64,000 bases of DNA from Clostridia bacterium. GTDB lineage: Bacteria; Bacillota; Clostridia; Christensenellales; QALW01. The DNA lies in the NCBI GenBank assembly GCA_045601365.1, contig JAZRZN010000002.1:20376-84375 (forward strand), given 5' to 3'. Made by a program: the position numbers and the translations under genes. Positions within the stretch are counted from its first letter, which is position 1. Every line of letters starts with the position of its first letter. The notes below the pieces were generated by a model that was given only the letters and a program-made list of their open reading frames with translations, was not told where the DNA came from and did not search any database. This document shows positions 2,740 through 60,009 of this stretch, one piece after another.

Positions 2740-3408
2740 ATGAACGGTTTGGAAGAAAGAATCAGTTATGAGTTCAAGGATAAAACGATACTTGAGCTTG
2801 CACTCACACATTGCTCCTATTCGGCAGAGCATAACGTAAAAAACAATCAACGGCTTGAGTTTTTAGGTGATGCTGTGCTTGAACATGTGATGAGCGATTA
2901 CATATTCAATAATTTTCCCGATTACGATGAAGGTAAAATGACACGTTTGCGTGCATCAATAGTTTCCGAAGAGCCGCTGTCGTCGGCGGCTGAGCAAATA
3001 GGGCTTTCGGAATATGTTATACTCGGAGCGGGTGAAAGGACGAGCGGCGGTGCAAATAAGCCGAGCGTGCTTTCCGATACTCTGGAATCGCTTTTTGCCG
3101 CGGTATATCTTGACGGCGGTTATGCCGAAGCCGAACGTGTCATACTTGATGTGCTTTCGGAAATAATAGATAACCCCCGGGAAAGACCGTCGGATTACAA
3201 GACCGCGTTGCAGGAATATCTGTTCCGCAACGGTACGGTCAATGTACAGTACAGGCTTGTTTCGATGGACGGCCCGTCACACAATGCGGTGTTCACGGTC
3301 AATGTCTACTGCAACGGGAAGCTTCTCGGTACGGGGAGCGGATCAAATAAAAAGCGTGCAGAGCAGGCGGCGGCAAAACAGGCACTTGAAAAAAAAGATA
3401 AGTTATGA
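2740..3408 (+). CDS. rnc: ribonuclease III
   Basis: 222 aa. RNase III signature QRLEFLGDAVLE and a C-terminal dsRBD (KKRAEQAAAKQAL). Confidence 0.95.
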   Translation: MNGLEERISYEFKDKTILELALTHCSYSAEHNVKNNQRLEFLGDAVLEHVMSDYIFNNFPDYDEGKMTRLRASIVSEEPLSSAAEQIGLSEYVILGAGERTSGGANKPSVLSDTLESLFAAVYLDGGYAEAERVILDVLSEIIDNPRERPSDYKTALQEYLFRNGTVNVQYRLVSMDGPSHNAVFTVNVYCNGKLLGTGSGSNKKRAEQAAAKQALEKKDKL

Positions 3409-3420
3409 TGCGGAGGAACA

Positions 3421-6400
3421 ATGTTTCTTAAAAGGCTTGAGCTGTTCGGCTTCAAATCGTTTGCCGAACGGCTGGATATAACGTTTTCCGGCGGTATAAC
3501 CGCGATAGTCGGTCCTAACGGGAGCGGTAAAAGCAATGTCAGCGACGCGGTGCGCTGGGTACTCGGAGAACAGAGCGCAAAACAGCTTCGCGGCGCGAAT
3601 ATGGCAGATGTCATCTTCAAGGGTACGGAGAACAGAAAACCGCTCTCGTACTGTGAGGTATCGCTTGTATTTGATAATTCGGATAAGGGGCTTGACATCG
3701 AGTATTCCGAAGTCGTTATTACCCGCCGACTTTACAGGAACGGCGACAGCGAATACTATATCAATCGCAACGGTGTGCGCCTTAAGGATATCGTATCACT
3801 GTTTCAGGATACGGGTATCGGCAAAGAGGGGTATTCCATCGTCGGACAGGGCAAAATAGAAAATATACTTTCCGGCAAGCAGGATGAGCGCCGTGCGGTA
3901 TTTGAGGAAGCCGCCGGCATAGTCAAATACAAGACGCGAAAAATCGAAGCAGAGCGCAAGCTTGAGCATACAAGCGAAAATCTCGTGCGCATAAATGATA
4001 TAATCGAAACGCTTCAGGACCGTATAGAACCGCTTTCGGCGCAGGCGGAGACCGCAAAGGAATATATCGGTTTGCGTGAACAGCTCCGTAATATCGAGGT
4101 CAACTTCTACCTTGTACAGAATGAACTGTCGGTACAGCGCAGAAATGAATACGGGCTTCAGCTTGAAGGTATAGATCAGGAACGTGAGGAAAAAACACAG
4201 CACGTTGCCGCGATAGATGCCGACAGCGCTTCGGTGACGGAACAGCTCGGTAAAAAAGACGAAGAGCTTGCGGCGGTGCGCGCAAAGCTTTTGGAGCTTA
4301 CTGCCGGCAGTGAGAAGATGCAGGGCGAAGGCAAGGTCTTTGCGGAGCGCATCCAGAACATCAACGAACAGCTTGAGCGTGTGAAAAATGAGCTTGAAAG
4401 CAACGCCGCACGCAAAAAGTCGATGGAGGATGCGATAAACGGCGATTCGGATGCAGAAAGCGAAAAACAAAAAACGATAGATGCAAAGACTGCGGAAGCC
4501 GAAAAGCTTGAAAAAGAGCTTGCGGAGCGCGACGGTTGGCTTGAAGGTGAGAATGATGAGCTTGAAAAGCTGAAGGCTGAAATGCTTGCGAACATGAACA
4601 AGCTTTCCGATGTCAAGTCGGCAATAAGCCGTTATGAGGCGATGCGCGCAGGCATTATTCAGCGCAAGGAGAAAATAAATATCGCCGCGGAACAGCTTCG
4701 CCTGCAACGCACGGGAATAGAAGAAGCTCTTGAGGAGCAAAAAGGCGATACGGCAGAGTATGACCGCGAGAAAAACAAAATATCACAGGACAAAGACTCC
4801 TTGAAAACAAAGTGGCAGGAGCTTTATATAAAAAAAGACAGTGCATCGGAAATACTTTCGCAAAAAAAGGCGGAGCTTAATTCGGCACAGTCAAGATTGC
4901 GCGTGCTTGAGGACCTGAAACGCGATTTCGAGGGCTTTAACTATTCGGTAAAAAAACTGCTTACGAGAAGTGAGCAGGACGCAGACATGAAAAAACGCAT
5001 ATGCGGTGTTGTGGCACAGCTTATTGCCGTTCCGGAAAAGTACGAAACGGCAATAGAAGCCGCTCTCGGCAGTGCAATGCAGAATATCGTCACGCCCACG
5101 GAGGAGGATGCAAAGGAGCTTATTGAGTTTTTGCGCCGCAACGATGCCGGACGTGCTACGTTCCTGCCGATATCGGCGGTGCGCGGCAGAGGCATCGACG
5201 AGCGCGAGCGTGCGTCTATCCGCACCGAAGGCTGCTTCGGCGTTGCGTCGGAGCTGATATCATACGACCAAAAATATGACGGCGTTATCAAAAGTCTGCT
5301 CGGCAGAACGGTGATAACAGATGATCTTACAGTCGGTATCGCGGTTGCGCGCAAAACGGGACATTCGCTTAAAATAGTTACGCTCAAGGGCGACGTTATG
5401 AATGCAGGCGGCTCAATGAGCGGCGGCAGTATGCGCCAGAAGACATCGAGCATACTCGGCAGAGAACGCGAAATAGAGGAGCTTAAAAAGCAGATAGCGG
5501 AAGTTCAGAAGGGCATTACCGGGTTTTCCGATGAAATGGCACATTTCGACGAAAACTGCAAAAAGCTTGAATCGGATATCGCTGAATGCGACAGAAAGCT
5601 CCATGAGCTTGATATCAAGTTCGCGCACGATTTCGAAAAGCTTAATTCGCTCAACAATGATCTTAAGCAGAATAAGGATGCCGATAGCGAGCTTAAACTT
5701 GAAAATGAACAGCTTGACGATACGCTTAAAGAAATCGATACTGAGCTTGCAAATATAAATCAAACGCAAGGAACCGTCGAAAGCTCCAATACCGACGCAC
5801 AGACAAGCATAAATGCGCGTCAGGCGGAATATAACAGAAAACAGCTTGAGCGCGAAAAGCTTTACCAAAAGCTTACCGACGCGCGAATAGAGCTGAACGG
5901 CTTGGATAAAGAGCTTGAGGCGATGAAAAGCAACGCTCAGCGCATGGGCGAGCTGATAAAAAATCTTGAGGTTTCATCTCAAAAGCTTGAAAACGACAGA
6001 AAAATATATTTTGCTCAGCTCGATGCCGCGAAGCTTGAAATGGAAGAGAGCGCAACCAAAAACACAGAGCTTAAAAACGAGCTTGAACAGTATTCGCAAA
6101 AGGAAAAGGATGCCGAGGCGGAACGCGAAAAGCTTGATTCCGCGCTTAAGGAAAATGACTCCAAACGCAGACGCTTTGAACAGGAGATATACGACGCGGG
6201 CGAGCGCAGGCACAAGATAGAGCTTGCGCTTACAAAGGTCGATAACGATCTTTCGTATCTTGAAAACCGCATCTGGGAAGAATATGAGCTTACTCAGGCT
6301 ACCGCCGAGGAGTTCCGCGATCCCGAATTTAAGCTGACGGGCGCGCAGACGGAAATAAACAAGCTCAAAAAGTCAATAGCGGCACTCGGCAATGTCAATG

Positions 6401-6978
6401 TCAACGCGATAGAGGAGTATGTCGAAACAAAGGAAAAATTCGATACGCTTTCAAGTCAGCGAGATGACCTGCAAAAAGCCGAAGACGATCTTCACAATAT
6501 AATCGACGAGCTTACCAAAAAAATGGATAAGCAGTTCACCGAGCAGTTTGAGCTTATAAACAAGAATTTTACCAAAATATTCAGCGAGCTGTTCGGCGGA
6601 GGCAGAGCCGAGCTTAAAATGGAGCAGGCGGAAAATTCGCTTGAGGCGGATATAGAAATAGTAGCACAGCCGCCGGGAAAAAGCTTACAGCTCCTGTCAC
6701 TGCTTTCGGGCGGCGAACGTGCGCTTACCGCAATAGCGATACTATTTGCCATGATGAAGCTGAAGCCGACACCGTTCTGCATCCTTGATGAGATCGAGGC
6801 GGCACTTGATGAATCAAACGTAGGCAATGTCGCTTCGTATCTGCGCAAGTTCTCGGAGCAGACGCAGTTTATAGTCATCACGCACCGCAAGCCGACAATG
6901 GAGGAAGCGGACAGTCTTTACGGCGTGGCGATGGAGGAAAAAGGTGTTTCCAAAATAGTTTCGGTAAAGCTTACTTAA
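3421..6978 (+). CDS. smc: chromosome segregation protein SMC
   Basis: 1185 aa. Walker A GPNGSGKSN, long E/K/L-rich coiled coils, central hinge, LSGGERALTA signature, Walker B ILDEIEAALD. Confidence 0.97.
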   Translation: MFLKRLELFGFKSFAERLDITFSGGITAIVGPNGSGKSNVSDAVRWVLGEQSAKQLRGANMADVIFKGTENRKPLSYCEVSLVFDNSDKGLDIEYSEVVITRRLYRNGDSEYYINRNGVRLKDIVSLFQDTGIGKEGYSIVGQGKIENILSGKQDERRAVFEEAAGIVKYKTRKIEAERKLEHTSENLVRINDIIETLQDRIEPLSAQAETAKEYIGLREQLRNIEVNFYLVQNELSVQRRNEYGLQLEGIDQEREEKTQHVAAIDADSASVTEQLGKKDEELAAVRAKLLELTAGSEKMQGEGKVFAERIQNINEQLERVKNELESNAARKKSMEDAINGDSDAESEKQKTIDAKTAEAEKLEKELAERDGWLEGENDELEKLKAEMLANMNKLSDVKSAISRYEAMRAGIIQRKEKINIAAEQLRLQRTGIEEALEEQKGDTAEYDREKNKISQDKDSLKTKWQELYIKKDSASEILSQKKAELNSAQSRLRVLEDLKRDFEGFNYSVKKLLTRSEQDADMKKRICGVVAQLIAVPEKYETAIEAALGSAMQNIVTPTEEDAKELIEFLRRNDAGRATFLPISAVRGRGIDERERASIRTEGCFGVASELISYDQKYDGVIKSLLGRTVITDDLTVGIAVARKTGHSLKIVTLKGDVMNAGGSMSGGSMRQKTSSILGREREIEELKKQIAEVQKGITGFSDEMAHFDENCKKLESDIAECDRKLHELDIKFAHDFEKLNSLNNDLKQNKDADSELKLENEQLDDTLKEIDTELANINQTQGTVESSNTDAQTSINARQAEYNRKQLEREKLYQKLTDARIELNGLDKELEAMKSNAQRMGELIKNLEVSSQKLENDRKIYFAQLDAAKLEMEESATKNTELKNELEQYSQKEKDAEAEREKLDSALKENDSKRRRFEQEIYDAGERRHKIELALTKVDNDLSYLENRIWEEYELTQATAEEFRDPEFKLTGAQTEINKLKKSIAALGNVNVNAIEEYVETKEKFDTLSSQRDDLQKAEDDLHNIIDELTKKMDKQFTEQFELINKNFTKIFSELFGGGRAELKMEQAENSLEADIEIVAQPPGKSLQLLSLLSGGERALTAIAILFAMMKLKPTPFCILDEIEAALDESNVGNVASYLRKFSEQTQFIVITHRKPTMEEADSLYGVAMEEKGVSKIVSVKLT

Positions 6979-6990
6979 TAAGGAGTTCTT

Positions 6991-7932
6991 ATGGGTTTAT
7001 TCGGAAAAAAAGAAAACGGTGAGGGCAAGGAAAGCTGGCTCAAAAAGCTTGCCGGCGGACTTGCCAAAACAAAAGAGAATATATCAAGCAAGCTTGATGA
7101 CCTTGTAAAATATTACCGCGAGATAGACGATGAGTTCTTTGAAGAGCTTGAAATGATACTGATTTCGGCGGATATCGGCGTAAATGCTGCAAACAGCATT
7201 CTTGATTCGCTCAAGGCGCGTGTCAAGGAGGAAAAGACGGGCGACAGCTCACTTATACATTCGTATCTGCGCGACAGCATCCGCGATATACTCACTTCGG
7301 CGGAAAAGGATGAGGAAGAATCCTACCCGATGCTTATGCTTGTGACGGGCGTGAACGGTGTCGGCAAAACAACGGCGATAGGAAAGCTGGCAAATTATTA
7401 TATCAAATCGGGTAAAACGGTGATGGTCGCGGCGGCTGATACGTTCCGCGCGGCGGCGGTGCAACAGCTCGACGAGTGGGCAAAGCGGAGCGGCGCACAG
7501 ATGATCCGCGGCAGTGACGGCGCTGACCCGTCATCGGTCGTGTACGATGCCATTGCGAGCGCAAAGTCAAAAAAAACAGATGTCCTCATTTGCGATACCG
7601 CGGGAAGACTTCATAACAAGAAAAATCTTATGGATGAGCTTTCCAAAATAGGCAGGGTGATAGCACGCGAATACCCCGAAGCGAAAAGACAGAATATGCT
7701 TGTGCTTGACGCTACTACGGGACAGAATGCGCTGACACAGGCACAGGGCTTTTCGGAGGCTGTCGGCATAGACGGGATAATCCTCAATAAGCTTGACGGC
7801 ACTGCAAAGGGCGGCGTCGCCGTTGCGATAGCCAAGGAAATGAATATCCCGATAATGTATATCGGGGTGGGTGAGGGCATCGACGATCTTCGACCGTTCG
7901 ATGCCGATGAATTTGCAAAAAATATAATCTGA
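6991..7932 (+). CDS. ftsY: signal recognition particle receptor FtsY
   Basis: 313 aa. SRP-GTPase NG domain motifs GVNGVGKTT, DTAGR, NKLDG. Confidence 0.95.
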   Translation: MGLFGKKENGEGKESWLKKLAGGLAKTKENISSKLDDLVKYYREIDDEFFEELEMILISADIGVNAANSILDSLKARVKEEKTGDSSLIHSYLRDSIRDILTSAEKDEEESYPMLMLVTGVNGVGKTTAIGKLANYYIKSGKTVMVAAADTFRAAAVQQLDEWAKRSGAQMIRGSDGADPSSVVYDAIASAKSKKTDVLICDTAGRLHNKKNLMDELSKIGRVIAREYPEAKRQNMLVLDATTGQNALTQAQGFSEAVGIDGIILNKLDGTAKGGVAVAIAKEMNIPIMYIGVGEGIDDLRPFDADEFAKNII

Positions 7933-7934
7933 AT

Positions 7935-8201
7935 TTATTTGTATTTTGCGATGAACTGCTTTATGTCGTGCAACAGCAGTTCATCGCGTTTTTGTATTTT
8001 TGGCGAGCTGATATCAAGCAGGTACGACGGGTCAAGCTCAAGGATTTGGCATATCTGCCTGAATTGCTCAAGGCTCGGCTCTTGCAAGCCGCGTTCTATC
8101 TTTGAATAGTTGGATTGGTTCATCGGTATCTTTGCCGCCATTTCGCACTGAGTAATCCCCGCACTTTCGCGGGCAAATTTTATCTTTTCACCAAAATCCA
8201 A
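7935..8201 (-). CDS. XRE-family helix-turn-helix transcriptional regulator
   Basis: HTH_3 pattern (IKFARESAGITQCEMAAKIPMNQSNYSKIERG). The ORF track starts at 8252. However, TGtTATAAT followed by GGAGAGG lies inside that extension, so the TTG at 8201 (LDFGEKIKF) is the likely start. Confidence 0.8.
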   Translation of the reverse strand: MDFGEKIKFARESAGITQCEMAAKIPMNQSNYSKIERGLQEPSLEQFRQICQILELDPSYLLDISSPKIQKRDELLLHDIKQFIAKYK

Positions 8202-8245
8202 TATACTCACCTCTCCTTCGATTATAACATTTTTAACTAAAAGTA

Positions 8246-8274
8246 TTGACAAATAGTTTATAATTATATATAAT
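8246..8274 (+). promoter_or_regulatory. consensus sigma-A promoter for the LRR/cohesin/dockerin gene
   Basis: TTGACA (8246-8251), 17 nt, TATAAT (8269-8274). It overlaps the divergent XRE promoter region. Confidence 0.6.
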
Positions 8275-8328
8275 AGTTAAAAATACACTAAACGTGTGTT
8301 TTGAAAAATAATTTTTTGGAGGAAAAAG

Positions 8329-9894
8329 ATGAAAAAGAACTTGCTTAGGCAGGCAATGTCCCTGTTGCTTGCGGCGGTGCTGGTAGCATCGTGTCTGTTT
8401 GCCATAAATGTGGCGGCAGAAGGGGAAAACATTGTACAGGGAACGACGGGAAGCATCAAATGGGTGTTGGATTTAGACAGATATGTGCTTACCTTAAGTG
8501 GCACAGGTGAAACAGACGGATACTATAATGCAATTAAGGGTTCGTTTTATGACAGACCTTGGCAAAACTATTTAGCGCACATTGAAAAAATTGTTGTAGA
8601 AGAAGGAGTTACAAGAATAGGCAGCGCTTGCTTTTGCGATTGCAACCAATTAGTATCGTTAAGTTTGCCGAGTTCACTTAAGAGCATCGGACGCGCAGCG
8701 TTTAGCAGTGATATACGTTTGGGAAGTATTGATTTGCCCAAAGGACTCACATCAATAGAACCATATGCATTTGAAAATTGCCAACGTTTGAGCGGAAAAC
8801 TAATTATTCCGGGAGTTCTTAATATTGGAGATACTGCTTTTTCAAATTGTACAGCCTTAACAGATGTAGTCATTTCACGCGGAACAATTTCGGTGGGCAG
8901 TGCCGCATTTGACGGTTGTACAAGTCTTAAAACCGTAACCTTGTCGCAAGGGGTTGTCAGCGTTGGCGAAAAAGCTTTCGGTAGTTGTTCCGCGCTTACC
9001 GATATCTATTACGGCGGAACTGAGGACGAGTGGAGCGATATTTCGATAAATGCTACGGGCAACCAATATTTCAATACCGCTACAAAGCATTTCAATGTTC
9101 ATGACCACAGATACATAACCGAGCGTGTTGAGCCGGATTGTACGCATACGGGTGCGGAGGTCAAAACCTGCGCCGAGTGCGGCGAAAAGATAACAAATAT
9201 CATCCCCGCGACAGGACATTTTTACGGCGAGGAGATCGAGGGTGTAAAGTCATGTATCGTCTGCGGACATGTTCAGGTGCATCCTGTTGAAATAACCGTC
9301 TGCGATGCGCGTGCCAATAAGGGACAGGTCAAAGTGCCGATAACACTTGATTATAACCCGGGGATATCGACCTTGCTTCTTAAGATAGGCTACGACAGCG
9401 AGGTATTCACGCTTTCGGAGGTCATCGACGGCGAAATACTCGGTGAAGCCGTTCACAGCGATAAGCTCACTGCCGACCCGTATACGCTTTCGTGGGAAAA
9501 CGACCTTTCGACCACGGATATTCCCGCTACGGGAGTTATCGCAACACTTGTGTTTGACATCAAAGAAGAAGCCGTGATGGGCAATTACAATATTACCGTA
9601 ACAAAGGGACAGGCGGCGAACAGTGCGCTTGAACTGTTCGAAACTTCATGCACCGACGGTACTGTGCGCTTCGATGCCAAGCTGATAGGCGATATCAATG
9701 ACGACGGCGAGGTCACACCTGCCGACAGAATGATGCTTTCGCGCTTCATCGCCGATTGGGATGGTTACGATACGACAACATGCAATATCCATGCCGCCGA
9801 TGTCAACGGTGACGGCGAGGTCGATGTCATTGACCGTATGATACTCGCGCGTTTCGTTGCCGATTGGGAAGATTATAAGGTATATTTTGAATAA
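8329..9894 (+). CDS. secreted BspA-type leucine-rich-repeat protein with cohesin-like domain and C-terminal type-I dockerin
   Basis: Signal peptide (MKKNLLRQAMSLLLAAVLVASCLFAINVAA). About 23-aa LRR units (IGxxAFxxCxxLxxVxLPxxL). A Cys-rich linker. Cohesin-like block (VKVPITLDYNPGISTLLLKIGYD...). Duplicated Ca-binding dockerin segments GDINDDGEVTPADRMML / ADVNGDGEVDVIDRMIL. Confidence 0.75.
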   Translation: MKKNLLRQAMSLLLAAVLVASCLFAINVAAEGENIVQGTTGSIKWVLDLDRYVLTLSGTGETDGYYNAIKGSFYDRPWQNYLAHIEKIVVEEGVTRIGSACFCDCNQLVSLSLPSSLKSIGRAAFSSDIRLGSIDLPKGLTSIEPYAFENCQRLSGKLIIPGVLNIGDTAFSNCTALTDVVISRGTISVGSAAFDGCTSLKTVTLSQGVVSVGEKAFGSCSALTDIYYGGTEDEWSDISINATGNQYFNTATKHFNVHDHRYITERVEPDCTHTGAEVKTCAECGEKITNIIPATGHFYGEEIEGVKSCIVCGHVQVHPVEITVCDARANKGQVKVPITLDYNPGISTLLLKIGYDSEVFTLSEVIDGEILGEAVHSDKLTADPYTLSWENDLSTTDIPATGVIATLVFDIKEEAVMGNYNITVTKGQAANSALELFETSCTDGTVRFDAKLIGDINDDGEVTPADRMMLSRFIADWDGYDTTTCNIHAADVNGDGEVDVIDRMILARFVADWEDYKVYFE

Positions 9895-9909
9895 ACGCTT
9901 AAAAAGTGC

Positions 9910-9938
9910 TTGACAAAAAAACGCATATGTAATATTAT
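9910..9938 (+). promoter_or_regulatory. sigma-A-like promoter upstream of the RAYT gene
   Basis: TTGACA (9910-9915), 17 nt, TATTAT (9933-9938). It lies inside the ORF-track N-terminal extension, which argues that the extension is not coding. Confidence 0.5.
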
Positions 9939-9940
9939 AA

Positions 9941-9970
9941 CGGCTGTAAAACATTTTTGCTTTACAGCCG
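9941..9970. repeat. perfect 10-bp inverted repeat with 10-nt loop
   Basis: CGGCTGTAAA acatttttgc TTTACAGCCG. It could be the terminator of the LRR gene or a 5' hairpin of the RAYT transcript. Confidence 0.6.
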
Positions 9971-10002
9971 TTGTTGTGCTTTGCGGGGCAGTAAATGATA
10001 TT

Positions 10003-10500
10003 TTGAAACATACATTGGATATAAGAAAACCGACACGGTTGAAATGCTTTGATTATTCGGCAAACGGATATTACTTTATTACGGTATGCACGGAAAATAA
10101 ACAGAAAATAATGTGTAATATCGTAGGGTGCGGCGTCCTCGACGCACCGAAAACAGAATTATCCGATATCGGTAAGACCGTAAAAAAGCAACTTGATTTT
10201 ATGGACGATTTTTATAACGATATTAAAATCGACAAGTATGTAATAATGCCGAATCACTTGCATTTGATATTGAAAATAAGGCGTGACAGCGGTGCGTCGG
10301 GGACACCGCATCCTACGAATAATGTGTTATCGTGTTTTGTCGGATCATTCAAACGTTTTACAAACAGAGCCGTCGGCAAAAATATTTGGCAAAAATCGTT
10401 TTACGACCATATAATCCGTGATGAAAACGATTATTTGAGAATATGTGAATATATCGACGCTAATCCTGCAAAATGGGCTGATGATGAATATTACACATAA
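10003..10500 (+). CDS. REP-associated tyrosine transposase-like protein (RAYT; Y1 HUH, IS200-like fold)
   Basis: HUH motif in IMPNHLHLIL. Catalytic Tyr context WQKSFYDHIIRDENDY. Typical N-terminus RKPTRLKCFDYSANGYYFITVCT. Start uncertain (TTG 10003 or 10015); the track start 9910 is unlikely. Confidence 0.75.
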   Translation: MKHTLDIRKPTRLKCFDYSANGYYFITVCTENKQKIMCNIVGCGVLDAPKTELSDIGKTVKKQLDFMDDFYNDIKIDKYVIMPNHLHLILKIRRDSGASGTPHPTNNVLSCFVGSFKRFTNRAVGKNIWQKSFYDHIIRDENDYLRICEYIDANPAKWADDEYYT

Positions 10501-10520
10501 AAACCTACAAAGCTTTACGG

Positions 10521-10674
10521 TGCGTCGGGGACGCCGCACCCTACGGGCAATAGTGTTGCGTAGCGTGCATCGCGGACGCCGCACCCTACGGGCAATAGTG
10601 TTGTGTAGCATGCATCGGGGACGCCGCACCCTACGGGCAATAGTGCTGTGTAGCATGCATCGTGGACGCCGCAC
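10521..10674. repeat. 45-bp tandem repeat, 3.4 copies, each containing a REP-like palindrome
   Basis: Units at 10521-10565, 10566-10610, 10611-10655 and partial 10656-10674. Consensus TGCRTCGNGGACGCCGCACCCTACGGGCAATAGTGYTGYGTAGCR, with only 1-4 differences between units. Confidence 0.9.
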
Positions 10675-10768
10675 AATTCTGATAGTTTCCAACCATTGCA
10701 TGAATAGGATGAAGTACCGAGAAAACTGCTTTCAAACGAGGTGACCACCTACGGACAGCGCAACCGAA

Positions 10769-11065
10769 ATGCTGATATTGCTTGACACATATGAAAAGCT
10801 TTTGACCGATACGCAGGCAAAAATACTGCGCATGCGCTTTGATGAGGACATGTCACTTTCGGAAATAGGTGAGCTTTGTTCGGTTTCGCGGCAAGCTGCG
10901 CATGATGCGATAGTCAAGGGTGAACAGAAGCTCAGGTTTTATGAAGAAAATCTTCATCTTGCAAAAAAGGAAAACGACATCCGCAACTTGATTTCCTTAA
11001 TGAAAAAAGAAAATGCGGATATAAAATATATCGACCTGCTTGAAAAACTAACGGAGGAACAGTAA
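10769..11065 (+). CDS. ylxM: YlxM/p13-like putative DNA-binding protein (UPF0122), first gene of the ffh operon
   Basis: 98 aa. Pattern LLDTYEKLLTDTQAKILRMRFDEDMSLSEIGELCSVSRQAAHDAI. It overlaps the ffh start (ATGA-type junction). Confidence 0.85.
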   Translation: MLILLDTYEKLLTDTQAKILRMRFDEDMSLSEIGELCSVSRQAAHDAIVKGEQKLRFYEENLHLAKKENDIRNLISLMKKENADIKYIDLLEKLTEEQ

Positions 11066-12414
11066 TGGCTTTTGAGGGACTTACCGAAAAACTTCAGAGA
11101 GTATTCAAAGGACTTAAGAGCCACGGCAAGCTTACCGAAAACGACGTAAAGGAGGCTATGCGCGAGGTGCGCATGGCTTTGCTTGAAGCCGATGTAAACT
11201 TTGCCGTAGCGCGTGATTTTGTCAAAAAAGTCACCGAAAAGGCCGTCGGCGAAAATGTACTCAACAGTCTTACACCCGGTCAGCAGGTAATCAAAATAGT
11301 AAACGACGAGCTTACCGAGCTTATGGGCGCGACGAATGCAAAGCTCACCGTTTCGTCACAGCTCCCGTCGATATATATGCTTTGCGGTCTGCAGGGCGCA
11401 GGTAAAACGACCATGTGCGCGAAGCTCGGCGGACATCTTAAAAAGCAGGGCAAAAAACCGTTGCTCGTTGCATGCGATATATACCGTCCCGCCGCCATAG
11501 ATCAGCTTAAGGTCGTCGGCGCACAGCTTGATATCGCAGTGTTCGACCGCGGCACGCAAAGCCCCATAAAAACAGCGCAGGAAGCGATAGCTTATGCAAA
11601 AAGCTATCTTTACGATACGGTGATACTTGATACGGCAGGTCGTCTGCATATAGACGAAGAGCTGATGAATGAGCTTGTCGATATCAAAAAGCAGGTGCGT
11701 CCCACCGAAATTTTGCTTACCGTTGACGCAATGACAGGTCAGGATGCCGTGAACGTCGCTCAGAGCTTTAACGAAAAGCTCGGTATCGACGGCGTTATTT
11801 TGACAAAGCTTGACGGCGATGCCCGAGGCGGTGCCGCAATGAGTGTCAAGGCGGTCACCGGCAAGCCGATAAAGTTCGCAGGTATAGGCGAAAAGCTTGA
11901 GGATATCGAGGTTTTTCACCCCGACAGAATGGCATCGAGAATACTCGGCATGGGCGACGTGCTTTCGCTTATCGAAAAAGCGCAGGAAAACTTCGACGAA
12001 GAGGAAAGCTCCAAGCTCGTTGACAGGATCAAGCAAAACAAATTCGATTTGCAGGATTTCTTGGATCAGTTCAAGCAGATGCGTAAAATGGGTTCGATGA
12101 AGGATATACTGAAATCGCTTCCGCCGATCCCCGGTCTTGATACAAGCAAGCTTTCTCAGCAGGAAATCGACGAAAAACGTATAGACCGCATAGAAGCGAT
12201 AATACTTTCCATGACGAAAAAGGAACGCAAGAATCCAGATATACTGAACGCATCGCGCAGACGGCGTATCGCCGCCGGAAGCGGCACGACCGTTCAGGAG
12301 GTCAACCAGATGATAAAGCAGTTCGAGCAGACAAAAACAATGATGAAACGCTTCGGTCTGTTTTCAAAAAAAGGCGGAGGAATGCCCAGAGGCGGCTTCC
12401 CCAAATTCAGATAA
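11065..12414 (+). CDS. ffh: signal recognition particle protein Ffh
   Basis: 449 aa. GLQGAGKTT, DTAGR, TKLDGD and a Met-rich M domain. Confidence 0.97.
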   Translation: MAFEGLTEKLQRVFKGLKSHGKLTENDVKEAMREVRMALLEADVNFAVARDFVKKVTEKAVGENVLNSLTPGQQVIKIVNDELTELMGATNAKLTVSSQLPSIYMLCGLQGAGKTTMCAKLGGHLKKQGKKPLLVACDIYRPAAIDQLKVVGAQLDIAVFDRGTQSPIKTAQEAIAYAKSYLYDTVILDTAGRLHIDEELMNELVDIKKQVRPTEILLTVDAMTGQDAVNVAQSFNEKLGIDGVILTKLDGDARGGAAMSVKAVTGKPIKFAGIGEKLEDIEVFHPDRMASRILGMGDVLSLIEKAQENFDEEESSKLVDRIKQNKFDLQDFLDQFKQMRKMGSMKDILKSLPPIPGLDTSKLSQQEIDEKRIDRIEAIILSMTKKERKNPDILNASRRRRIAAGSGTTVQEVNQMIKQFEQTKTMMKRFGLFSKKGGGMPRGGFPKFR

Positions 12415-35342: not shown

Positions 35343-35429
35343 GCAGGTATGGCGGAATTGGCAGACGCGCACGGTTCAGGTCCGTGTGAAAGCAATTTCA
35401 TGCAGGTTCAACTCCTGTTACCTGCACCA
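35343..35429 (+). tRNA. tRNA-Leu (anticodon CAG), class II with long variable arm, CCA encoded
   Basis: Hand-folded cloverleaf. Acceptor GCAGGTA/TACCTGC. D arm GCG-11-CGC. Anticodon stem CACGG/CCGTG with loop TTCAGGT. Variable stem TGAAA/TTTCA. T arm GCAGG-TTCAACT-CCTGT. Discriminator A plus CCA. Total 87 nt. Confidence 0.9.
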
Positions 35430-35430
35430 T

Positions 35431-35464
35431 GCAAAAGGCACTTGCGAGAGCAAGTGCCTTTTGC
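35431..35464 (+). terminator. perfect 15-bp stem-loop immediately after the tRNA
   Basis: GCAAAAGGCACTTGC gaga GCAAGTGCCTTTTGC. No long T-run follows. Confidence 0.6.
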
Positions 35465-35465
35465 A

Positions 35466-35533
35466 ATGATATCCGTTCCTGTCGGAACGGATGATATACA
35501 TTCGGTATGATATCCACCTTCGGTGGATGATAT
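35466..35533. repeat. two copies of a hairpin module with conserved flanks ATGATATCC...GGATGATATA
   Basis: Copy 1 stem ATCCGTTCC/GGAACGGAT with loop TGTC (35471-35492). Copy 2 stem ATCCACC/GGTGGAT with loop TTCG (35512-35529). Confidence 0.7.
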
Positions 35534-35686
35534 ATGCCTTTGGCACATAAATGAACGGATATTATATGAAATAAATCTTTTCGTTCTGCGATTTTACATT
35601 CGGTTGAAAAACGAATATTTCACTAAAACATAATTGTGCTGTTTCGTATATATACAGAATTCTGCAAAACACAAGGAGAGACTTCG

Positions 35687-57875: not shown

Positions 57876-58631
57876 ATGGCATTTATTCAAATGAGCATGT
57901 TTTCGGAAGCGTTGGGCAAGTGCGTTCAGGTAAACGTCATCATGCCGCAGAACAGCACTAACGGTCAGATAGGCTTGGAGAACAATTCATCCGGCGGTAA
58001 TTACAAAACGCTGTATCTGCTTCACGGCTTGTCCGATGACAATACTATATGGATGCGCAGAACGTCAATAGAACGCTATGCGGCAAAATACGGTATCGCG
58101 GTCGTCATGCCGAACGGCGATAAGAGCTTTTATACAAATATGGTACACGGCGACAGATATTATGATTATATCGCACGCGAGCTTCCGAATATCATAGAAA
58201 ATATGTTCCCGGTATCGCGCAAACGTGAGGATCGCTATATCGCCGGACTTTCTATGGGCGGCTACGGTGCGCTCAAGATAGCGTTGAGAGAAGAAACGTT
58301 CGCCTGCGCCGCGGCACTTTCGCCCGTGGGTGATATAAAAAAGCGTTCGGAATATTGGGTGGAGCTTTTCAAAAGCATTTTCGGAGAGGAGCGAAACATA
58401 CCCGATAATGACGATCTGTATTGGCTCATCAAAAACTGCAAAACGCGTCCGCGTATCTTTATGGCGATAGGCACAGAGGATTTTTTGTATCACGACGACC
58501 AACCGCTTAAAGACGCTATAGTACGCGAAAATTACGATTTCAAGTATATGGAGGGATCCGGAACGCACTGCTGGGAGTTCTGGGACGAGTATATTCAGTA
58601 CGCACTTGAATGGATGTTTGAAAAAGCGTAG
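57876..58631 (+). CDS. esterase (tributyrin esterase / S-formylglutathione hydrolase-like family)
   Basis: Start moved to ATG 57876. LYLLHGLSDD and nucleophile elbow GLSMGGYGA. Confidence 0.8.
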   Translation: MAFIQMSMFSEALGKCVQVNVIMPQNSTNGQIGLENNSSGGNYKTLYLLHGLSDDNTIWMRRTSIERYAAKYGIAVVMPNGDKSFYTNMVHGDRYYDYIARELPNIIENMFPVSRKREDRYIAGLSMGGYGALKIALREETFACAAALSPVGDIKKRSEYWVELFKSIFGEERNIPDNDDLYWLIKNCKTRPRIFMAIGTEDFLYHDDQPLKDAIVRENYDFKYMEGSGTHCWEFWDEYIQYALEWMFEKA

Positions 58632-58713: not shown

Positions 58714-58739
58714 TTCGCTTTGCACGTCTATGATAACGC

Positions 58740-59002
58740 GTAGGGTGCGGCGTCCCCGACGCACCGCTGTCGCACGGTGAGTTGCAGGAAATCGCAACAT
58801 GTTTTATATCTTTGTGTCATTGCGAGGAGCGTTAGCTCCGTGGCAATCCGGATACGAACAGAAGTAACTTTATGTAAAACATGGATTGCCACGCATCCTG
58901 CGGATGCTCGCAATGACACAATGGGTATTTTTCGGAATAATGGCGTTGTTTCCTGCCCGTGCTTTGTGCGCGAACGGTGCGACAGCGGATGCCGCACCCT
59001 AC
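58740..59002. repeat. 263-bp nested-palindrome element bounded by inverted REP-like (GTAG-palindrome) motifs
   Basis: Outer inverted repeat GTAGGGTGCGGC...(58740-58765) / ...GCCGCACCCTAC (58987-59002). CCGCTGTCGCAC / GTGCGACAGCGG. TGTGTCATTGCGAG (58813-58826) / CTCGCAATGACACA (58907-58920). GTGGCAATCC (58840-58849) / GGATTGCCAC (58883-58892). Confidence 0.85.
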
Positions 59003-59103
59003 GGGACAGTCAAGACAGTGCGCCGTAAAAACGTATGAGCATATGCTGTTTTCTCAACGTTATTTTTCACGGAAATAAAAAAGAACCAAAGCGTAAAAAG
59101 TGC

Positions 59104-59232: not shown

Positions 59233-60009
59233 ATGTCAGAAAAATCAGTTATCTCAATGAAGAGCTTGCTTGAAGCAGGCGTACACTTCGGTCATCCCAC
59301 ACGCAGATGGAACCCGAAAATGGCACCGTATATCTTTACGGAGCGCAACGGCATCTACATCCTTGACCTTCAGAAGACCGTCAAGAAGGTAGAAGAAGCT
59401 TATTCGTTCGTATTCGATGTAGCTTCTAACGGCGGATCTATCCTTTTCGTCGGCACAAAGAAGCAGGCACAGGAGTCGATCGAATCCGAAGCAAAGCGTT
59501 GCGGCATGTTCTATGTAAACCAGAGATGGGCGGGCGGCATGCTCACCAACTTCAAGACCATCCGTTCGAGAATCGAAAAGATGAAGAAGATCGAAAAGAT
59601 GATCGAGGACGGCACAATGGAGCTTCTTCCCAAAAAAGAGCAGGCTAAGCTCATGAAGGAAAAGGAAGAGCTTGATGCAAACTTCGGCGGTATCCGCGAA
59701 ATGACAAACATCCCCGATGCGATGTTCGTTGTTGACCCCCGCAAGGAAGCCAACGCTATCCATGAGGCTAAGATCCTCGGCATCCCGGTAGTTGCCATCG
59801 TTGATACGAACTGCGATCCCGATGACGCCGATTATGTTATCCCCGGCAATGACGATGCTATCCGTGCCGTAAAGCTGCTTGCAGGTACAATGGCTAACGC
59901 CGTTATCGAAGCCAACCAGGGCGAATCCTTTGAGGTAGAGGAATCCGAGGAAGCGGCTGAGGCTGAGGTAAACGAGATCGTTGAAGAGATCAATTCCGAA
60001 GAAGCTTGA
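59233..60009 (+). CDS. rpsB: 30S ribosomal protein S2
   Basis: 258 aa. [19 protein letters not shown] and an acidic C-terminal tail. Confidence 0.97.

Follow-up and report, generated by a model that had tools for sequence, protein, structure and literature searches.

The 2.8 kb of DNA that lie between ftsY and ylxM in this Clostridia bacterium are best read, with a probability that we put at about 0.8, as two lineage-specific insertions that entered an ancestral ftsY-ylxM spacer of ~100 nt at separate places. The alignments put the first after the ftsY stop codon and ahead of the -35 hexamer of the ylxM promoter, and the second in the ylxM leader, right after its hairpin (Table 1; the window is the whole 64-kb stretch analysed here). 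All features that the first-pass annotation had listed are in place at the coordinates it gave. The core genes keep their order on both sides of the insert, rnc-smc-ftsY to the left and ylxM-ffh-rpsP-khpA-rimM-trmD-rplS to the right. Bacillus subtilis has smc-ftsY and ylxM-ffh-rpsP clusters, and the window resembles it in this order; it differs in that the junction is broken, and most of the Clostridia sampled do not keep this junction either.

Table 1. Features of the ftsY-ylxM interval, and a related repeat pair, by position in the window
Feature	Position	Strand	Basis and remarks
ftsY (SRP receptor)	6991-7932	+	Pfam SRP54_N and SRP54; left core gene, closes the rnc-smc-ftsY block
Insertion 1, ~1.97 kb	7933-9905		Between ftsY stop codon and -35 of ylxM promoter
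XRE-family helix-turn-helix regulator	7935-8252	-	Pfam HTH_19 43.4 bits, HTH_3 41.4 bits; convergent with ftsY
Divergent control region	8229-8284		LRR-gene promoter and flanking inverted repeat
Predicted secreted BspA-type LRR, cohesin and dockerin protein, 521 aa	8329-9894	+	Pfam
Ancestral ylxM promoter and leader hairpin	9908-9972	+	Block-for-block alignment with the spacer of L001-L004, L162 and L163
Insertion 2, ~0.76 kb	9976-10737		Within ylxM 5' leader, from hairpin to Shine-Dalgarno; RAYT, REP array, tail
RAYT-like Y1 HUH gene, 161 aa from probable start TTG 10015	10015-10500	+	Pfam Y1_Tnp; profile search; model
Internal REP copy 1	10121-10149	-	GTAGGG and hairpin, read on + strand; encodes I-VGCGVLDAP
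Internal REP copy 2	10290-10318	+	Same orientation as downstream array; encodes SGASGTPHPT
Extragenic REP array, 3 full and 1 partial 45-nt units	10518-10680	+	Repeat search
Ancestral ylxM Shine-Dalgarno GAGGTG (10738-10743) and former start, now ACG (10751-10753)	10738-10753	+	Alignment, translation
ylxM (10769-11065) and ffh (11065-12414)	10769-12414	+	Pfam UPF0122; SRP54_N/SRP54/SRP_SPB; right core genes
Extragenic inverted REP pair, REPIN-like	58731-59005		Flanked by an ORF that ends at 58631 and one that starts at 59233

The comparison rests on relatives collected by peptide-pattern searches, a biased sample, in which a FtsY identity of at least 74% defined a clade of seven other lineages. 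Except in the closest one, ylxM-ffh follows ftsY after ~110-130 nt in these lineages (FtsY 76-86% identical), so that the two genes are adjacent in six of the seven, and no XRE, LRR or RAYT gene stands between them in those six. Such empty sites are found in L001-L004 (110-129 nt), in L163 and in all ten contigs, L170-L179, of a single further lineage. Their spacer leads from the ftsY stop to a ylxM promoter close to consensus, then to a conserved hairpin with a T-rich run behind it, and through a Shine-Dalgarno site to ylxM, with only 12-16 T-rich nt between hairpin and GGAGG. The seventh and closest lineage, L162, carries a different gene at the position of insertion 1, a PL8 lyase (Lyase_8, 608 aa) that begins 12 nt past the ftsY stop and is followed by the promoter, hairpin, Shine-Dalgarno site and ylxM of the clade, all in place. 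The relatives thus do not uniformly carry the genes of this interval, and the proposal of the first-pass annotation that these genes are a lineage-specific gain is borne out by the six empty lineages and the different gene in the seventh. The species itself is represented by two genomes, both metagenome-assembled; the second and independent one, L081 (nucleotide identity to the window 96.5% in smc and 98.8% in ffh), has the identical layout with one REP unit fewer.

What separates the two insertions is, by alignment, the ancestral promoter and hairpin of ylxM, intact, with the -35 hexamer at 9910-9915, the -10 hexamer TATTAT at 9933-9938 and the hairpin, which may act as a terminator, at 9939-9972 (fold z = -3.2 to -4.9). 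The signature GCTTGACAAAA-N18-30-CTGTAAA-N8-12-TTTACAG occurs a single time in the window, at 9908-9967, and once in each of 17 clade loci; it was found in 0 of 162 other loci, other RAYT loci included. The right edge of insertion 1 can be placed to within ~10 nt and both edges of insertion 2 to within ~10-15 nt. The first-pass annotation had described a single island; on that view the near-consensus promoter at 9910-9938 would be inserted DNA serving RAYT. The genes are indeed contiguous, jointly absent from relatives and both found in the one other genome of the species; nevertheless, a one-piece island whose own promoter drives RAYT is improbable, because a single insertion cannot put ancestral spacer DNA in its middle. 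These 65 nt are homologous to the ylxM promoter and leader of the relatives and are absent from other RAYT loci, and L162 carries cargo at site 1 alone. What looks like a promoter of RAYT is thus the old promoter of ylxM. The two insertions were probably separate events, although no intermediate with one insertion alone was found among the two genomes of the species; a single recombination from a donor already bearing both would look identical.

To an artefact of assembly or binning, in which a chimeric join was made at a repeat, we give almost no credence: REP arrays and metagenomic contigs misassemble easily, and the two genomes differ in their number of REP units, but these independent assemblies, 1-4% apart in the flanking genes, share gene order and junctions. 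The junctions of insertion 1, moreover, are non-repeat sequence, and each ancestral element, be it promoter, Shine-Dalgarno site or codons, occurs once and in the correct order.

The premise that most Firmicutes share an intact ftsY-ylxM-ffh junction does not stand up in the Clostridia sampled farther afield. Among 101 informative loci of more distant Clostridia, no ffh was present over at least 5 kb from ftsY in 87, whereas it lay 1.7-4.5 kb away in 10 and was adjacent in 4. Since ftsY and ylxM are so often apart there, one might ask whether the arrangement seen here came first, the relatives having since lost the intervening genes by deletion. This is very improbable, as it needs at least six precise, independent deletions, each restoring the same compact spacer of promoter, hairpin and Shine-Dalgarno site. 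Against it stand also the genes found between ftsY and ylxM in Lachnospiraceae, which are unrelated to those found here and include a threonine-dehydratase-like gene with PALP and ACT domains, and the outgroups in which the two genes are adjacent (L006, L064 and L098).

The 5' end of ylxM tells a story of its own. As the first-pass annotation had noted, the ORF (UPF0122, 69 bits) starts at ATG 10769 with only three residues, MLI, before LLDTYE, and the sole Shine-Dalgarno-like motif, GAGGTG, lies 25 nt upstream; the disruption by insertion that had been read from this is contradicted by the alignment. L162 reads SD-6nt-ATG GAA AAA GCA TTT GAA ATG GCA ATA TTG CTT GAT where the window reads SD-7nt-ACG GAC AGC GCA ACC GAA ATG CTG ATA TTG CTT GAC, so that the Shine-Dalgarno site and six upstream codons are still in register with the relatives, the in-frame ACG six codons upstream stands in place of the ancestral ATG, and the counterpart of ATG 10769 in the nearest relatives is an internal Met. 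L081 is identical to the window at both the Shine-Dalgarno site and the ACG. The insertion did not truncate ylxM, which seems to have lost its ATG separately and would now start either at what used to be an internal Met, with no Shine-Dalgarno site to serve it, or weakly at the ACG, while ffh, with a GGAGG of its own upstream, would retain its ribosome-binding site.

The old promoter would owe its survival to the position of the insertions, the first just upstream of it and the second just downstream of the leader hairpin, and it probably now drives RAYT, the REP array, ylxM and ffh as a single unit. A promoter scan found no promoter-like site from 10416 to ylxM and only one other candidate in the insert, within RAYT at 10386-10415, which could feed ylxM-ffh instead.

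Insertion 1 has the look of a self-contained cassette, in which an XRE repressor would be divergent from a strong promoter driving a secreted LRR-cohesin-dockerin protein. The perfect TTGACA-17-TATAAT promoter that had been claimed for the LRR gene is there (12/12 consensus match at 8246-8274), and on either side of it lie the arms of a perfect 11-nt inverted repeat (8229-8239 and 8274-8284); this repeat, conserved in L081, is a candidate operator of the XRE protein. An HTH_3-type domain, a divergent promoter and this predicted operator are what we found on examining the XRE ORF as a repressor of a divergent gene; PADLOC returned generic HTH matches only. The regulator probably starts at GTG 8210 or TTG 8201, directly after GGAGAGG, 8252 being only the limit of the ORF, and the gene is 99.4% nucleotide-identical in L081. 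Its partner scores 115 bits for LRR_5, 43.7 for Cohesin (cut-off 24.1) and 45.6 for Dockerin_1 (cut-off 22.9), and its N-terminus, MKKNLLRQAMSLLLAAVLVASCLFAINVAA, resembles a signal peptide when read by eye. Cellulosome-type cohesin-dockerin adaptors and dockerin-bearing LRR proteins occur in rumen and gut Clostridia, and with one cohesin, one dockerin, BspA-type repeats and a signal-peptide-like N-terminus the predicted secreted protein has the domains of a cellulosome component. It differs from such proteins in being paired with an XRE regulator of its own, in having no companion cohesin or dockerin gene in the 64-kb window, and in its LRR half, which appears hypervariable within the species: identity to L081 is 44-78% over residues 41-240 and 93-100% over residues 241-521. 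Close homologues were found in the same species only, the next best match reaching 42% identity over 27% of the length.

Both insertions are missing from close relatives and atypical in composition, as genomic islands are (GC is 0.37-0.42 over 8000-8800 and 0.38 over 9800-10400; the flanking genes mostly have 0.45-0.55). An integrase-type island was considered and rejected: Pfam detects no recombinase domain, there are no flanking direct repeats, and the sole tRNA of the window lies at 35343-35426. At insertion 1 neither an integrase nor a target duplication was found, and its donor was not traced, with no match among plasmids or phages. Because the nearest other lineage has its PL8 lyase gene at the same spot, the point between the ftsY stop and the -35 hexamer acts like a site that takes up DNA repeatedly and leaves the promoter untouched, on the strength of two occupied lineages. 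Horizontal transfer into hotspots between conserved core genes is an established concept; the likeness here lies in one core-gene interval with different cargo (XRE-LRR or PL8 lyase), conserved flanking genes, an insert of lower GC and the lack of an integrase, and the difference in that two occupied lineages are known and each cargo amounts to one or two genes instead of a large island.

Insertion 2 centres on a RAYT-like gene, a single copy in the window, and neither a RAYT gene nor a REP was found in the loci of the relatives. The called ORF of 196 aa, from 9910, starts on the TTG of the -35 hexamer; TTG 10015 is probably the true start, since most homologues are ~160-170 aa long. The protein just exceeds the Pfam Y1_Tnp cut-off (24.8 bits against 23) and matches NCBIfam NF047646 (REP_Tyr_transpos) at 71.1 bits (E = 8.6e-20), below the 80-bit equivalog cut-off. 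A HUH motif together with a catalytic Tyr in Y---NP is the signature of class-2 RAYTs (PMC6006769), and the window protein has both, the predicted motifs being H81/H83 and Y146 in YIDANP. N80-H81-x-H83 and Y146-I147-x-x-N150 are invariant in 19 homologues, P151 nearly so, and Y146 falls opposite residue 115, the first Tyr of YIYINP, in the alignment to 4ER8. In a profile search of the PDB, 4ER8 (TnpA_REP) was found at E = 5.8e-9 and ISDra2 (2xm3) at E = 5e-3, which places the protein by sequence nearer TnpA_REP than IS200/IS605 TnpA. An AF2 model (pLDDT 79.8, pTM 0.75) returned from Foldseek only Y1 transposases among its top 30 matches, 2xm3 and 4er8 being the best (4er8: TMq 0.59, rmsd 4.3). 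By sequence this is a divergent and Clostridial subfamily, with 3527 matches at E up to 1e-5, most of them without Pfam annotation. Homologues sit in host operons elsewhere, between a peptidase S66 gene (4-nt gap) and thrE in L166 and between hisS (13-nt gap) and aspS in L168; the window gene, apparently without promoter or Shine-Dalgarno site of its own, would ride on its host operon in the same way. An IS200/IS605 insertion sequence was rejected, as the hairpins lie within the ORF on opposite strands, not subterminally outside tnpA, and as the window has just a single copy and the loci of relatives have none.

The closest known parallel is the REPtron, or RAYT-REP system, reportedly described by Nunvar in 2010, Ton-Hoang in 2012 and Bertels in 2017, with TnpA_REP of E. 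coli (PDB 4ER8) as its example. Common to both are the Y1 HUH fold with its HUH and Y---NP motifs, 4ER8 being the best PDB match, palindromes made of a GTAG(G) head and a hairpin, and REPs clustered beside the gene. REPs also recur farther away in the window, an inverted REPIN-like pair among them, and the window has a single RAYT copy. The REP core GGGACGCCGCACCCTACG occurs seven times in the 64-kb window (at most 3 mismatches), where ~0.01 would be expected by chance. The layout with inverted REPs on both sides of the gene is not what we found: there is no upstream REP, the downstream REPs form a head-to-tail array of 3.5 direct 45-nt units instead of alternating BIMEs, and the inverted pair lies inside the ORF, in two segments unmatched in the alignment to E. 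coli TnpA_REP. The window RAYT differs further in scoring below the equivalog cut-off and in where it sits, within the leader of an essential operon and at a place specific to the species; vertical inheritance, by contrast, is what is usually described for RAYTs. The array had been taken as the right edge of the island; it is there, but 57 nt of unique sequence separate its end from the Shine-Dalgarno site.

The two internal, GTAG-tagged hairpins are mutually inverted and stand on either side of the HUH motif. In the AF2 model the residues encoded by copy 1 form the loop of a beta-hairpin, and those encoded by copy 2 a loop with pLDDT <50 immediately after the motif. Reverse-complementary codons covary at both (115 of 118 homologues for copy 1, 88 of 93 for copy 2), and the DNA stems differ compensatorily across four genomes. 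The 45-nt unit of the array is homologous along its entire length to the RAYT segment 10286-10335, and in another genome the internal 3' copy has grown in frame to 4-5 tandem 45-nt units; by sequence this copy appears related by descent to the extragenic arrays. It is tempting to speculate, with odds that we hold to be somewhat against it, that the coding sequence of this Clostridial RAYT subfamily contains its own substrate, two inverted REP hairpins kept by codon covariation. The RAYT and REP literature that we searched looked at or described gene-flanking sequences only.

Insertion 2 may also have been kept for an effect on regulation, the RAYT-REP module being shielded from deletion by its position between a promoter and an essential gene and the array tuning ylxM-ffh expression, a proposal that we consider rather unlikely. 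It would fit the position in the 5' leader, the homologues inside housekeeping operons and the 99.2% conservation of the module between the two genomes (96.3-98.8% for the flanking core genes), and REPs are reported to affect mRNA stability and termination (PMC3733652). However, shuffled sequence folds at least as well as the whole array (z = +1.65), the REP hairpins have no T-run behind them, and the high conservation may just mean recent arrival.

With two insertions as the preferred reading, the locus is a clean, small example of accessory genes entering a compact essential-gene region of a gut Clostridia bacterium without breaking it, and three points of annotation are corrected: the start codon of RAYT, the gene to which the promoter belongs and the start of ylxM. 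This is ordinary genome change in which a domesticated transposase gene has one unusual detail, and the observation of internal REPs may matter more than that of the insertions. If it is true and functional, the REP family would have the RAYT gene as its master copy or, alternatively, RAYT would be able to act on its own gene or mRNA through the internal hairpins. REP hairpins in the coding sequence across a large RAYT family bear on the origin of REPs, and also on how a RAYT and its REPs remain matched.

An ORF map combined with domain searches bore out the gene list given by the first-pass annotation for the interval between ftsY and ylxM-ffh, namely an XRE regulator, an LRR-cohesin-dockerin gene and a RAYT gene (table below). 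The proposal that this DNA was inserted between ftsY and ylxM is likewise supported, the intervening genes being missing from all sampled relatives except L081, the second genome of the window's species (nucleotide identity 96.5% for smc and 98.8% for ffh). An FtsY scan with one genome per species returned four relatives at 76-79% identity (L001-L004), the remainder reaching 57% at most; ylxM starts 110-129 nt past ftsY in all four, and no XRE, LRR or RAYT homologue was found at their ftsY-ylxM junction. A search with the FtsY protein recovered a graded clade of about 40 clusters at 74-86% identity; the site is empty in L163 (FtsY 81%) and in 10/10 contigs of the P0013 lineage (L170-L179, FtsY 79%), and a 608-aa PL8 polysaccharide-lyase gene lies between ftsY and ylxM in L162, the closest other lineage (FtsY 86%). 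The empty relatives, the other cargo in L162 and the same genes in L081 together show that the window's species gained the intervening DNA. Scanning metagenome_contigs with FtsY yielded nothing above 54% identity and no further close relatives, and exact-protein look-ups gave no match for the window's FtsY, Ffh or LRR protein and a single contig, L081, for its YlxM. The junction itself, held to be conserved in most Firmicutes, is less constant than stated: among 101 informative distant loci (FtsY below 74% identity), ftsY and ffh are adjacent in only 4 and lie 1.7-4.5 kb apart in 10, several of the latter being Lachnospiraceae in which a PALP + ACT threonine-dehydratase-like gene precedes ffh, and in the other 87 ffh is absent within 5 kb or more downstream of ftsY.

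Features of the ftsY-ffh region and its surroundings (window coordinates)
Feature	Position	Strand	Basis or remark
rnc	2740-3408		ORF map and domain searches
smc	3421-6978		ORF map and domain searches
ftsY	6991-7932		ORF map and domain searches
Insertion 1	7933 to ~9905		between ftsY stop and -35
XRE-type HTH ORF	7935-8252	minus	ORF map and domain searches
LRR promoter TTGACA-17-TATAAT	8246-8274		12/12 match
ORF with LRR_5, cohesin and dockerin domains	8329-9894	plus	ORF map and domain searches
Promoter-hairpin block	9908-9972		intact
Promoter-like site	9910-9938		ancestral ylxM promoter
Conserved hairpin	9939-9972		3-5 nt past the -10
Insertion 2	~9976 to 10737		between hairpin and Shine-Dalgarno site
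Y1_Tnp ORF (RAYT)	end 10500		ORF map and domain searches
Internal REP copy 1	10121-10149		encodes VGCGVLDAP
Internal REP copy 2	10290-10318		encodes SGASGTPHPT
REP array	10518-10680		3 full 45-nt units and 1 partial
ylxM	10769-11065		ORF map and domain searches
ffh	11065-12414		ORF map and domain searches; followed by rpsP

The intervening DNA had been described as a single 2.8-kb island, a reading that we replace. The spacer of the relatives comprises, in order, the ftsY stop, GCTTGACAAAA, a 17-nt -35/-10 spacer, TATTAT(A), a hairpin of the form (G)GCTGTAAA...TTTACAG(CC), a T-rich run, GGAGG(TG) and the ylxM start. In the window, the promoter-hairpin block stands intact, with the LRR gene on one side and the RAYT ORF on the other; its signature occurs once there. 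Each of 17 clade loci likewise has a single occurrence, in every case upstream of ylxM, and 162 other loci, other RAYT loci included, have none. Since this block is retained in the middle of the stretch, the layout has two insertion sites, one on either side of the retained promoter, and the promoter-like site just 5' of the RAYT gene represents the ancestral promoter of ylxM. A target-site duplication was considered at insertion 2, where TGCTTT lies near both edges and the sequence around it resembles the ancestral spacer on both sides; the motif is too short and too degenerate to call. The conserved hairpin (folding z = -2.9 to -4.9) has equivalents in L163 (8958-8990), L001-L004, L162 and L170-L179, the relatives' copies being followed by the T-rich run. 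It could serve as a terminator for ftsY that overlaps the point where ylxM transcription begins, as an attenuator in the leader, or as an operator. Neither this hairpin nor the REPs matched an Rfam family, and two sub-threshold matches to miRNA models were taken as chance. Elsewhere in the window, a tRNA (35343-35426) is directly followed by a match to Gut-1 RNA at 35464-35538, which reaches 57.7 bits where the gathering score is 50.

The translation start of ylxM (ATG 10769, MLILLD) does lie 25 nt past the nearest GAGGTG, as reported; the disruption of its 5' end by the insertion, with which this had been called consistent, gives way to another explanation. At this position L162 reads GGAGG-6nt-ATG GAA AAA GCA TTT GAA ATG GCA ATA TTG CTT GAT and the window GAGGTG-7nt-ACG GAC AGC GCA ACC GAA ATG CTG ATA TTG CTT GAC, so that Shine-Dalgarno site, spacing and reading frame are all kept. 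An ACG (10751-10753) now stands where the ancestral ATG was, and ATG 10769 was previously an internal methionine; the lack of a close Shine-Dalgarno site thus results from a point mutation of the start codon and not from truncation. L081 shows no difference from the window at these positions, and ffh has its own GGAGG directly upstream of its ATG.

The XRE gene of insertion 1 converges with ftsY, its stop codon lying 2 nt past that of ftsY, and diverges from the LRR gene, whose perfect promoter was present as described. This promoter is bracketed by a perfect 11-nt inverted repeat (8229-8239 and 8274-8284), conserved in L081 and likely a candidate operator. The 105-aa XRE call, starting at 8252 on a TTG that is the reverse complement of a CAA within the LRR promoter's -35, probably has the wrong start; a shorter ORF beginning at 8201 or 8210, just past GGAGAGG, is a better fit. 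The LRR protein carries a signal-peptide-like N-terminus followed by BspA-type LRRs, a Cys-rich linker, one cohesin and one dockerin. In comparison with L081, its residues 41-240 are 44-78% identical and residues 241-521 93-100%, and the XRE gene shows 99.4% nucleotide identity. At the nucleotide level, the LRR half (8450-9050, against 7720-8330 in L081) is 71.7% identical and its surroundings 96-99%. The LRR module forms a hypervariable segment of local extent, a pattern compatible with recombination or with diversifying selection acting on a surface protein. The GC content of insertion 1 is below that of its flanks. Domain and repeat searches revealed neither an integrase nor a flanking repeat, the LRR protein search no candidate donor, and DNA searches of the 2.8-kb stretch against plasmids and phages no match. 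A defence island was rejected, PADLOC giving generic HTH matches only. Because the lyase of L162 occupies the same position, this spot looks like a recurrent integration point. That lyase (8933-10759) is chondroitinase-AC-like, lies on the same strand with its own Shine-Dalgarno site and starts 12 nt past the ftsY stop.

Insertion 2 encodes a RAYT-type Y1 HUH enzyme. Its protein exceeds the Pfam Y1_Tnp cut-off, has E. coli TnpA_REP (4ER8, E = 5.8e-9) as best PDB sequence match and yields an AF2 model (pLDDT 79.8) that matches Y1 transposases; of the top matches, 4ER8 ranks first by query-normalised TM-score and also has the lowest rmsd. The HUH motif (H81/H83) and Y146 in YIDANP are conserved among homologues; the NCBIfam equivalog score, 71.1 bits, is below the cut-off of 80. 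The 196-aa ORF call takes the TTG of the -35 hexamer (9910) as its start and is likely wrong; TTG 10015 probably fits, as most homologues measure about 160-170 aa. The REP array reported downstream was found, one 45-nt unit shorter in L081, and its repeats resemble known REPs in their GTAG(G) plus hairpin form, the core occurring seven times in the window against ~0.01 expected. As an intrinsic terminator the array was discarded, since shuffled sequence folds at least as well as the complete array and there is no T-run behind it. A second pair of the same REP, inverted and intergenic (58731-59005), encloses another, unrelated long palindrome of the GTGTCATTGCGAGGAGCG...CGCTCGCAATGACAC type, which suggests nested repeat families; kinship between the interior of this pair and that of RAYT was rejected, the match being limited to the REP ends.

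RAYT homologues in three other genomes are located 4-58 nt 3' of a co-directional gene, and for this reason the family seems to be embedded in host operons and to rely on host promoters. In L168 (2987-3785), and also in L169, the homologue sits between hisS and aspS, 13 nt past hisS; in L166 and L167 it lies 4 nt past a peptidase S66 gene. A promoter scan from 10416 to ylxM detected no promoter-like site. Taken together with the apparent habit of the homologues of riding host operons, this suggests that the old ylxM promoter would now transcribe RAYT and the REP array along with ylxM and ffh.

The RAYT coding sequence itself harbors two REP copies, mutually inverted and bracketing the HUH motif. 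The same layout recurs in three homologous loci, L165 (3130-3348), L166 (3113-3313) and L168 (3116-3496), with stems that differ and are internally complementary. For the first hairpin, we asked in the protein motif V-G-x1-G-x-x-D-x4-P whether x1 and x4 can be encoded by exactly reverse-complementary codons; they can in 115/118 homologues, compared with 38.7 ± 4.8 (maximum 57) in shuffles, and 14/17 distinct pair types are compatible against a background of 13%. For the second hairpin, 88/93 homologues obey a corresponding rule, compared with 44.9 ± 4.1 in shuffles. The internal REP hairpins are thus conserved across this RAYT family by reverse-complementary codon covariation. In the AF2 model, the copy-1 segment forms a beta-hairpin loop and the copy-2 segment a loop with pLDDT <50; unlike the window's RAYT, E. 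coli TnpA_REP has no counterpart, in the alignment, to either REP-bearing segment. The extragenic 45-nt unit aligns over its full length with the internal 3' segment, and read from the sequences the internal 3' copy departs from the extragenic consensus at two positions, both synonymous. The internal 3' copy of L168 has undergone an in-frame expansion to 4-5 units of 45 nt, and some homologues use a different frame of the same DNA, which then encodes GDAAPY. In L165, L166 and L168, a search within 3 kb for extragenic copies of the internal REP belonging to each gene found none. Intragenic REPs are already known in genes other than RAYT (PMC3733652), and Bertels et al. 2017 recorded just the extragenic sequence flanking each RAYT gene; in the RAYT/REP literature searched, we found no description of REP hairpins inside the RAYT coding sequence. 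While the genomic event between ftsY and ylxM is ordinary, a fresh instance of already known kinds, these internal hairpins are the part that deserves follow-up.
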